Source: a virus
Taxonomy: Duplodnaviria; Heunggongvirae; Uroviricota; Caudoviricetes
Virus record (IMG/VR): IMGVR_UViG_2606217104_000018
DNA: 10,462 bases
Direction: 5' to 3' (one strand)
The translations under genes were made by a program, and so were the position numbers. The notes beneath the pieces were generated by a model. The model made no database searches and was not told the DNA's origin. It saw only the letters and a list, made by a program, of their open reading frames with translations. This document shows, piece after piece, positions 1,505 to 1,763 of the stretch. Numbering within the stretch: position 1 is the stretch's first letter; each line of letters begins with the position of its first letter.

Positions 1505-1624
1505 GTCATGTTTTGTAAATTATTTGTTCGTGGTTGTTCCACGTTGCTCGCTGACCGGAACGGCATATTTTACCCGACCTGAATCATGATTATTCTCGCC
1601 CGTGGTGCCAGGACGCTGGGGCCA

Positions 1625-1674
1625 TTTTCCCGCCTGTTAATGTGCTCGCCAATATTCATTACCAGGCGGGAAAA
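1625..1674. promoter_or_regulatory. Perfect 12-bp inverted repeat TTTTCCCGCCTG (1625-1636) / CAGGCGGGAAAA (1663-1674) with 26-bp spacer in the capsid-operon leader; candidate regulator binding site or RNA structure
   Basis: Exact reverse-complement arms read directly from the sequence. Located in the 260-bp non-coding leader between the terminator at 1483-1504 and the capsid start. Confidence 0.4.
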
Positions 1675-1726
1675 CGATCGGTGCGATTACTGATTTCCTT
1701 ATGAAAAACGGTTGAGTGTTTGCCGC

Positions 1727-1763
1727 GTCCTGGAGTTCCTTACTTAACCCCAGGACTTTTTTT
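1727..1763 (+). terminator. Terminator-like hairpin plus U7 tract immediately 5' of the capsid start codon (possible attenuator / antitermination target)
   Basis: Stem GTCCTGG (1727-1733) / CCAGGAC (1750-1756), with inner pairing GTT (1735-1737) / AAC (1746-1748), then TTTTTTT (1757-1763) directly followed by ATG at 1764. The only AGGA (1753-1756) that could act as a Shine-Dalgarno sequence lies inside the stem. Confidence 0.45.

Follow-up and report, generated by a model that had tools for sequence, protein, structure and literature searches.

A probable off-by-default leader in front of the capsid genes of capsid-forming phage satellites of Escherichia coli

The DNA analyzed here (the window) is a stretch of 10,462 nucleotides from the IMG/VR virus record IMGVR_UViG_2606217104_000018, and it is a capsid-forming phage-inducible chromosomal island (cf-PICI) of the EcCIEDL933 type, a phage satellite of E. 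coli. The region of interest lies in front of its major capsid gene (1506-1763) and had been taken in the original prediction for a control region of the capsid and packaging operon, a description that stands. In the reading favored here, to which we give a probability of about one half, the region holds the promoter and the 5' untranslated leader of the island's own capsid and packaging operon, is driven by an island regulator, most likely AlpA, and is gated by two competing RNA pairings, a terminator-like hairpin (H4) and a long-range helix (B). The satellite probably uses the leader as a gate of its own, closed by default, on the making of capsids, and not as a sensor of helper late genes.

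This reading has five steps. By comparison with relatives, the terminator at 1483-1505 would close the upstream unit and a weak sigma-70 promoter would start an RNA at about 1602. An island DNA-binding regulator, most likely AlpA, would then act on a TGTAAAT box and a set of phased repeats located at about -90 to -50. Covariation shows that the resulting 162-nt leader RNA folds into two hairpins, H1 and H2, and a final hairpin. From energetics and anatomy, the final hairpin of the E. coli clade, H4 with its run of seven uridines (U7), would mask the AGGA of the ribosome-binding region and resemble an intrinsic terminator whose end coincides with the start codon; by default, the majority of transcripts are predicted to be stopped at H4 or to be untranslatable. 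Lastly, compensatory changes point to an alternative helix in which the H1 apex pairs with the 5' arm of H4 (1608-1616/1725-1733); this helix would dissolve H4 and permit read-through and ribosome access.

The evolution of the region was studied in relatives collected by searching IMG/VR and one genome per species with the capsid as a guide, which provided several hundred loci and about 130 distinct leaders. These take two main forms, the window type (E. coli and Shigella) and a larger group 2, recovered from genomes of Citrobacter, Erwinia and Rosenbergiella and from numerous contigs of uncultivated viruses. The locus L061 is a divergent member of the window type, its capsid being 69% identical. 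The elements of the predicted transcript are the following (positions in the window):

1602-1625, + strand: hairpin H1, GUGGU-G-CCAG-GACG-CUGG-G-GCCAU, with which the mRNA is predicted to begin (minimum-energy fold, RNAalifold)
1608-1616, + strand: 5' strand of helix B, CCAGGACGC, formed by the H1 apex and 5' inner arm, a perfect 9-bp complement of 1725-1733
1626-1674, + strand: hairpin H2, the inverted repeat of the original prediction (18-nt arms at 94%; a hairpin in every lineage)
1677-1696, + strand: small hairpin H3, clade-specific and weakly supported (minimum-energy fold; not conserved in L061 or other clades)
1725-1733, + strand: 3' strand of helix B, GCGUCCUGG, covering the entire 5' arm of H4 (complementarity and covariation)
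1727-1756, + strand: hairpin H4, GUCCUGG/CCAGGAC, terminator-like and predicted to sequester the Shine-Dalgarno-like bases (-14.7 kcal/mol, z = -2.3)
1752-1755, + strand: AGGA resembling a Shine-Dalgarno sequence, located 8 nt ahead of the ATG within the 3' arm of H4 (pairing probability of about 1 in the minimum-energy fold)
1757-1763, + strand: U7 tract directly against the start codon (T7 or T8 in all window-type relatives, including L061)

The hairpin at the ATG was correctly recognized in the original prediction as a GC stem followed by U7 (GTCCTGG 1727-1733 / CCAGGAC 1750-1756, T7 1757-1763), with the AGGA 1752-1755 buried in its 3' arm. It was said to end 1 nt short of the ATG, but the T7 touches the ATG (1764-1766) with no gap at all. 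H4 thus has the form of an intrinsic terminator, with a 7-bp stem of which 5 pairs are G-C and U7 without gap, a combination that arose in 2 of 1000 dinucleotide shuffles of 1506-1763. A looser terminator scan, used to count ATG-abutting terminators across distinct leaders, predicted one at the capsid ATG in 29/30 distinct window-type leaders and in 0/87 leaders of other clades. Both arms and a T8 are retained in L061, where the loop has diverged, and the change of C1750 to U in several isolates retains a G.U pair. The minimum-energy fold of 1600-1766 consists of H1, H2, H3 and H4 (-63.8 kcal/mol). Since this favored fold pairs the AGGA, the only Shine-Dalgarno-like sequence, and ends in a GC stem and U7 at the AUG, the default state is predicted to be off, in agreement with the earlier suggestion of default termination or occluded translation. 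The leader as a whole folds with z = -4.0, the same on both strands; the + strand fold is the more stable one in 22/22 window-type leaders, whereas the strands do not differ in other clades.

The competing pairing is suggested by the evolution of H1. This hairpin is GUGGC-A-CUCA-GACG-UGAG-CC-GCCAC in group 2 and GUGAC-A-CUCC-GACG-GGAG-CC-GUCAC in the loci L133 and L150, so that its inner stem varies from CUCA/UGAG to CCAG/CUGG to CUCC/GGAG and its outer stem from GUGGC/GCCAC to GUGAC/GUCAC around an invariant GACG loop; the U.G wobble of the window clade is consistent with an RNA of the + strand. RNAalifold recovered 9 pairs of H1, 5 of them with at least one double change, and three inner-stem pairs are doubly changed in 24-26 sequences. 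The changes in H1 are matched on the other side of helix B, where AGACGUGA faces UCACGUCU in group 2 and GACGGGA faces UCCCGUC in L133. Over 89 distinct leaders, 82.6% of the cells of helix B are paired, a share that falls to 29-47% if the partner strand is shifted by 1-3 columns, with 5 pairs changed on both sides and 4 invariant. The two segments lie about 110 nt apart (108 nt), and their pairing excludes both the H1 inner stem and H4. An evolutionarily maintained alternative helix on the 5' arm of the terminator, as expected of an attenuator, is thus present as helix B (in about three lineages).

Group 2 holds a different version of the same competition. Its last hairpin, GGUUUC...GAAACC, contains a weak GGA ribosome site and lacks a U-run, yet its 5' arm also overlaps the (extended) helix B, and forcing B costs 6-8 kcal/mol, the same ordering as in the window. 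Judged by these alignments, the theme conserved across clades is a ribosome-site hairpin competing with the H1 apex, and the U-run, with any transcription termination that it may bring, is an addition specific to the E. coli clade.

The DNA upstream of the predicted transcript contains the remaining elements:

1483-1505, + strand: intrinsic terminator T0, AGCCGGA-GCAA-TCCGGCT followed by TTTTTG (scanner call), closing the replication/perC unit
1511-1523, no strand assigned: TTTTGTAAATTAT, containing the TGTAAAT box (1514-1520), a DNA element conserved among relatives and placed some 83 bp ahead of the inferred start
1524-1552, no strand assigned: three direct repeats with 10-bp spacing, TTGTTCG / GGTTGTTCC / CGTTGCTCG, a candidate AlpA-binding array at about -78 to -50
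1569-1574, + strand: putative -35 hexamer TTTACC, 16 nt from the -10 (by comparison)
1591-1596, + strand: putative -10 hexamer TATTCT, 5 nt upstream of H1 (by comparison)

The non-coding DNA ahead of the capsid gene, put at 260 bp in the original prediction, is indeed non-coding; counted from the perC stop (1476), it amounts to 287 nt and opens with T0. The same position is occupied in relatives by terminators with other stem sequences, for instance AGCCCTGG..CCAGGGCT followed by T7 in L061, and another in L014, and the conserved leader module starts at T0 whichever gene lies upstream. Among these upstream genes, the island of SHP24 (E. coli, NZ_CP104788; L233 141-560) carries between perC and the leader an extra gene for a 74-aa hypothetical protein, equivalent to an insertion at about position 1478 of the window, and its terminator AGCCGGAG(A/C)AATCCGGCTTTTT is duplicated, one copy standing behind each of perC and the 74-aa gene. 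In many IMG/VR relatives it is the 74-aa gene rather than perC that directly precedes the terminator.

No strong sigma-70 promoter had been seen by eye in the region, and the scanner found none at 9/12 or more consensus positions either. Comparison nevertheless points to a weak sigma-70 promoter at 1569-1596, with 8/12 consensus positions, just under the scanner threshold of 9/12, and a start at about 1602-1604, which would place H1 at the extreme 5' end of the 162-nt leader. The -10 hexamer is always T-A-N-N-N-T in 67 distinct leaders (TATCTT 36, TATGTT 9, TATTCT 7, TATATT 7, TATTTT 3, TAAATT 2, TACCTT 2 and TATCCT 1), positions 1, 2 and 6, the three that matter most in a -10, being invariant while the inner ones vary, and TTTAC[A/T/C] or TTTTCT is found at 16-nt spacing as the -35 in 51 of the 67. 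Both hexamers are kept between the window and L061, whose spacers have diverged.

The TGTAAAT box is found in leaders from Escherichia, Citrobacter, Erwinia, Rosenbergiella and Gilliamella, and starts 86-88 bp ahead of the first base of H1 in 103/104 distinct upstream regions, although the intervening sequence is variable. A covarying intrinsic terminator follows the box in 49/87 group-2 leaders; in the window type, the terminator precedes it. This arrangement and the lack of a conserved -35 led to the rejection of TGTAAAT as the -10 of the capsid promoter. The box is not a common feature of alpA promoters, as a similar one stands 104 nt before alpA in the window-type island and not in other islands. 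PerC was likewise rejected as the activator, since PerC-like genes were present in only 3/76 islands with the box and perC is separated from the leader by another gene in SHP24; the pchE papers, too, offered nothing that connects with capsid genes.

The repeats that follow the box suggest a role for AlpA. In a single island type, the leader repeats are identical to the reverse complement of the int-alpA array at 22/28 positions (maximum of 19 in 200 shuffles), and a third copy of the array is located upstream of int. AlpA and repeat types were tabulated in 58 islands with capsids at least 95% identical (including one whose leader was unclassified and three whose AlpA types were unassigned): the repeat type agrees with the AlpA allele in 53/54 scorable islands, with one discordant. 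Four types of post-box sequence follow the AlpA allele (I/rI in 1 island, II/rII in 15, III/rIII in 24 plus one near-match, IV/rIV in 13), and the TGTAAAT box is constant regardless of AlpA type. Within each repeat type, many unrelated clusters are seen in the DNA that separates alpA from the leader. The RNA part of the leader travels with the packaging module and the DNA repeats with alpA; this would fit a feedback exerted by a packaging protein, which is speculation. AlpA is known to activate PICI genes and its own promoter (PMC6092414), the induction of EcCIEDL933 is abolished by mutation of alpA (bioRxiv 10.1101/2022.09.08.507074), and overexpression of alpA drives the reproduction of EcCIEDL933 and has been used for capsid production (bioRxiv 10.1101/2025.02.11.637232). 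From the allele concordance, the shared int-alpA array and this published dependence, we infer that the upstream repeats are bound, and the weak promoter driven, by AlpA or by a closely linked factor. The repeats were also considered as iterons of a replication origin and rejected, as the origin iterons beside the primase gene are TCTACCT (PMC6092414). Four phased TCTACCT repeats, presumably the iterons of the island origin, are present at 10935-10975 of L001, a genome with a leader identical to that of the window, just 3' of the primase gene.

Several observations weigh against the favored reading. Helix B has a predicted equilibrium probability of about 1e-5; when it is forced, the fold of 1600-1766 reaches -55.4 kcal/mol, a cost of 8.4 kcal/mol, so a factor or co-transcriptional kinetics would be needed for B to form. 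The compensatory changes in H1 and B correspond to only about three independent lineage events, and the support that they lend to both structures appears real but not deep. H4 itself never covaries and bears uncompensated changes in three isolates (L018, L040 and L053). Its loop measures 16 nt, or 8 nt if three inner pairs form across a 1x1 mismatch, and the consensus scanner did not call it a terminator because the loop exceeds 8 nt. Since hairpin and U7 are missing in every other cf-PICI clade, termination cannot be the conserved function of the leader. On the DNA side, repeats resembling those of the leader were not significant near alpA in 13 other islands and only were so in the window-type island, and the association between AlpA alleles and repeats could be linkage within lineages. 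The transcription start, the termination and the read-through are all deduced from sequence. Lastly, no RNA-binding, antiterminator, Q-, N- or RfaH-like protein was found among the small proteins of the island, whose Pfam and PHROGs matches are to families of unknown function only.

The sensor by which an attenuator is usually triggered was also looked for within the leader. There is no conserved leader peptide or upstream open reading frame (ORF): the short ORFs at 1508-1582, 1640-1693 and 1701-1715 have no ribosome site and are not conserved. The Rfam 15 covariance models gave no match at E <= 1 anywhere in the window, and neither an Rfam family nor an antiterminator-like island protein was recovered as a trigger.

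Several alternative scenarios may explain these data. A serious rival, if on balance an unlikely one, is a fixed dampener: H4 and U7 would make up a constitutive leaky terminator with a weak ribosome site that sets a low fixed ratio of capsid without any switch, and the complementarity between H1 and the H4 arm would serve elsewhere, for instance in the compaction or stability of the leader. The empty search for a trigger among the small island proteins and the strongly disfavored energetics of helix B both speak for it. Moreover, a U-rich tract before an AUG can be a landing site for ribosomal protein S1, and a 5'-terminal hairpin such as H1 is a classical stabilizer of mRNA. Yet B has been kept by compensatory changes in three lineages, always overlapping an arm of the ribosome-site hairpin in spite of the sequence differences, and unless the two folds compete, the conservation of this overlap across clades is difficult to account for.

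A tentative and rather doubtful extension of the competing-fold reading would generalize it to the cf-PICIs at large. Their capsid leaders might form an undescribed family of cis-regulatory RNAs (H1 with its GACG loop, a variable H2, and a ribosome-site hairpin set against the H1 apex), acting as a three-state switch that gates the capsid and is flipped by a factor of the packaging module, such as capsid or terminase feedback, or by the leader RNA in trans; the E. coli clade would have turned it into an attenuator by means of the U-run.

A design similar to H4 was noticed elsewhere in these islands. In many group-2 cf-PICIs, alpA itself is preceded by a GC hairpin and a T7 touching its ATG, AATGCTCTCGAACCTTAGCGAACGAGAGCATTTTTTTATGAAC, for instance at about 2010-2055 of L199 (where the tblastn match to alpA begins at 2072) and also in L211, L175, L191, L171, L176, L224, L192 and L194. 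Variants occur in L163 and L201, a GCCCTCG/CGAGGGC variant being compensatory, and other alpA types have a CCTCCAC...GTGGAGG hairpin that contains the ribosome site. The succession of hairpin, U7 and AUG may be a recurring checkpoint design in cf-PICIs.

It is improbable that the capsid operon lacks a promoter of its own and is instead read by a termination-resistant polymerase that would come from an alpA-proximal promoter and ignore both 1483-1505 and 1727-1763. In favor of this scenario, Gram-negative PICIs are transcribed in one direction (PMC6092414), two terminators stand in series in a co-directional array, and a protein named AlpA is a Q-like antiterminator in Pseudomonas aeruginosa (PMC7969949). 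The latter was rejected as a homologous precedent, the shared name being a coincidence: Pseudomonas AlpA is 21Q-like, with eight helices and DNA contacts at residues 128-142, and is unrelated to the PICI AlpA, a protein of 62 aa whose only solved relative is 8c3t. Such a read-through is further contradicted by the failure to find a Q-, N- or RfaH-like island protein, by the conserved -10/-35 pair downstream of the first terminator and by the recombination of the leader module independently of the upstream genes.

The original prediction also raised the possibility that the leader senses the helper, transcription or translation being blocked until a late activator or antiterminator of the helper phage arrives. 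This version seems very improbable, and the claim finds no support in the present data. The default fold is off, as it requires, and the known helpers are lambdoid phages that encode antiterminators. Helper phages do turn on the island, but through the expression of alpA (PMC6092414). Packaged tail-less cf-PICI capsids have been reported from a non-lysogenic strain carrying the island alone, and also after induction by phages whose tails cannot be used (bioRxiv 10.1101/2025.02.11.637232); overexpression of alpA is likewise reported to yield capsids that contain island DNA. The upstream repeats follow the AlpA allele of the island, and most cf-PICIs do without hairpin and U7 though their helpers are similar. 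A Q-type promoter-proximal arrangement is absent, and lambda-type antitermination would call for a Q-like protein, which was not found in the island, where the promoter scores 8/12. The leader is not found in phage genomes other than cf-PICI-like records: the phage collection gave three matches, including a 16.5-kb record of cf-PICI size (the one examined). A record deposited as a phage, the 106-kb Klebsiella phage P12620-1 (PQ569648.1), contains at 102124-102300 a leader of group-2 type with 77% identity, and may represent a cf-PICI co-assembled with, or embedded in, a phage record. Given the helper-free capsids, the island-specific repeats and a leader that bona fide phage records lack, it is unlikely that a helper late factor acts at the leader; the helper would act earlier, on alpA expression.

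The remaining element of the leader is the inverted repeat reported at 1625-1636/1663-1674. Its arms, TTTTCCCGCCTG and CAGGCGGGAAAA, are fully complementary as described, and a perfect repeat of at least 12 bp appeared in 0/1000 of the dinucleotide shuffles of 1506-1763. It extends to 18-nt arms with one mismatch (1625-1642 / 1657-1674). Base 1625 is C in nearly all relatives and T in the window; the repeat then counts 11 bp and 1625 belongs to H1. The basal stem is TTTCCCGCCTG/CAGGCGGGAAA in the window and GGCCGTTTAA/TTAAACGGCC, GTCCACCCGG/CCGGGTGGAC, GCCGCCTGAC/GTCGGGCGGC or GCCCGCCCC/GGGGCGGGC in other lineages. In total, the 89 distinct leaders have 39 different basal stems that are always complementary (median of 11 contiguous pairs; 377 Watson-Crick and 19 G.U pairs), in a hairpin spanning 40-63 nt. 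The variants GGCCGTTAAATC and GGCCGTTAAGTC, each facing GATTTAACGGCC, differ by an A-U as against a G.U pair only, a change that is neutral solely in RNA of the + strand, and RNAalifold also finds the H2 stem, with many pairs doubly changed. A palindromic operator would keep both the sequence of its half-sites and their spacing, and neither is fixed across the 89 leaders. The inverted repeat is, on this comparative evidence, a conserved covarying RNA hairpin and not a protein-binding palindrome. A DNA operator, in which this repeat and/or the H1 palindrome would bind a dimeric repressor or activator, could appeal to a perfect 12-bp repeat well beyond chance and to a window folding energy that is the same on both strands, but it is hardly tenable in view of the stems that change with their complementarity always retained, the variable spacing of the arms, the restriction of the A-U to G.U changes to the + strand and the location of the repeat downstream of the inferred transcription start. 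The interpretation given in the original prediction was thus right about a control region that is off by default, wrong about the nature of the inverted repeat, and probably wrong about helper sensing.

Other pairings and motifs were noted in the leaders. A perfect 11-bp long-range helix, 1588-1598/1768-1778, was rejected: the -10 region, which precedes the inferred start, makes up its 5' strand, it bears the uncompensated changes T1590G (L016/L017), C1768A (L002) and A1775T (L061), and it is missing in other clades. The sequence CCAGGAC occurs three times in the window (1464-1470, 1608-1614 and 1750-1756), at spacings of 144 and 142 nt, and its complement once (1727-1733), an arrangement that recalls seqA/seqB/seqC of the immunity of satellite P4; the first copy lies within the end of perC and may be due to chance. 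Between H2 and the last hairpin, group-2 leaders (e.g. L124, about 640-655) have a conserved unpaired C/U-rich tract, CCUCCCCUCCAAGC, similar to an anti-Shine-Dalgarno sequence or to a loading site for Rho; in the window type, H3 and an A-rich stretch take its place. A subgroup of short leaders (L101, L102, L104, L107 and L109), with about 125 nt ahead of the capsid ATG at 701, has the TGTAAAT box, a covarying terminator and a -10-like element TGTTAAAT(A/T), while H1, H2 and helix B are all absent.

The identification of the island is based on its gene content. The leader is followed by the first gene of the packaging operon:

1764-2921, + strand: major capsid protein gene, HK97 type (Pfam Phage_capsid, 2e-61)

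According to Pfam matches of the window ORFs, the genes downstream of the leader encode this HK97-type capsid, a prohead protease, a portal, a head-completion protein, a connector, an HNH endonuclease and the large terminase (TerL). RefSeq annotates the capsid start at the same ATG (1764-1766), and the N-terminus aligns with those of the relatives. The ORFs upstream of the leader encode the C-terminal part of an AAA protein of primase type and a member of the PerC family. A 501-base query including the leader had 100% identity in 15 of the best 20 listed complete E. coli genomes. One genome with an identical leader, NZ_CP042903, carries a 15-kb island with int, a 62-aa AlpA-type regulator, primase, perC and the same packaging genes; the genes expected of a cf-PICI (int, alpA and primase together with capsid, protease, portal, connectors, HNH, TerS and TerL) are present in the combined evidence of the window Pfam matches and this gene set, which agrees with the published EcCIEDL933 (bioRxiv 10.1101/2022.09.08.507074). 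Leader matches were found in 444/5426 complete E. coli genomes, in 360 of which at least 80% of the leader was covered, mostly at 95-99% identity. The cos site presumably lies between the HNH and terS genes, judging by gene order; for the leader, the covariation of its hairpins favors a role as RNA over a cos site.

The flanks of the window differ from those of L001. The genes upstream of perC are not the same (window 1-1400 against L001 10600-12000): the window has the primase C-terminus (19-807) and a 127-aa ORF (878-1261), and L001 has the primase end, a hypothetical gene and an SSB gene. Both this hypothetical gene and the 127-aa ORF match phrog_1231, and the region ahead of the leader would thus have undergone mosaic recombination. 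Past the packaging operon, on the minus strand (9002-10462), the window has a 486-aa ORF running to its end, where L001 has a disrupted tqsA.

The cf-PICIs are satellites with capsids of their own making, whose tail-less particles, once released, can take tails from the phages of other species. How the production of these capsids is timed and limited has not been described so far, and no mention of a promoter or terminator for the capsid operon was found in the two cf-PICI papers searched for one. The present analysis offers candidate parts: a weak promoter with a TGTAAAT box at fixed distance, repeats matched to the AlpA allele, and a folded leader with two competing pairings. If the switch were true, it would constitute a checkpoint between island replication and particle production and a handle for the engineering of PICI-based delivery particles; if there were only a fixed dampener, the leader would be an ordinary attenuator-like one.

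Comparison with known systems helps to situate this leader. The closeness to P4 immunity, in which seqB of the CI RNA pairs with seqA and seqC, lies in a satellite leader where short complementary segments choose between termination and read-through; here, however, there is neither sequence nor Rfam similarity, the pairing would prevent termination, and the operon concerned is that of the capsid and not an immunity region. Relatives of P4 CI/seqA have been reported in PICIs in another zone (PMC10111431). The late control of lambda (PR', 6S RNA, tR' and Q) also involves a short leader transcript, predicted here to end at a terminator ahead of the structural (late) genes, but no Q-like gene was found in the island, no Q-binding or pause arrangement was recognized, the cf-PICI promoter is weak whereas that of lambda is constitutive and strong, and the leader is absent from lambdoid phage genomes. 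The three direct repeats with 10-bp phasing that precede the weak promoter, and that are also found beside int and alpA, are reminiscent of the winged-helix regulators AlpA, Vis and Xis; the repeats occur near alpA in the window-type island only, however, and the universally conserved TGTAAAT box does not vary with AlpA type. Mu mom, controlled by Com, and the phage leaders activated by RNase III share with both cf-PICI clades Shine-Dalgarno-like bases placed in the 3' arm of a stable AUG-adjacent hairpin, which has to open for initiation. In contrast to Mu mom, the island gave no protein that is Com-like or otherwise RNA-binding, the competitor B is intramolecular, and the E. coli clade has a U-run.

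The leader is also close in layout to the leader attenuators of the trp, pyrBI, T-box and BglG/LicT-RAT types, which similarly have a GC hairpin and a U-run before the first gene and an upstream segment complementary to the 5' arm of that hairpin, and in which a local hairpin, in the position of H1, competes with the antiterminator pairing in a three-state layout. The cf-PICI leader differs from them in having no conserved leader peptide, no recognized tRNA-specifier or RAT-like element and no Rfam match, in the 108 nt that separate its competing segments, in a terminator that contains the ribosome site and touches the AUG, and in the sister clades that retain the competing pairings without the U-run. 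The element is an attenuator-like 5' leader, and as such of a known kind, with an undescribed conserved architecture that is specific to the cf-PICIs.

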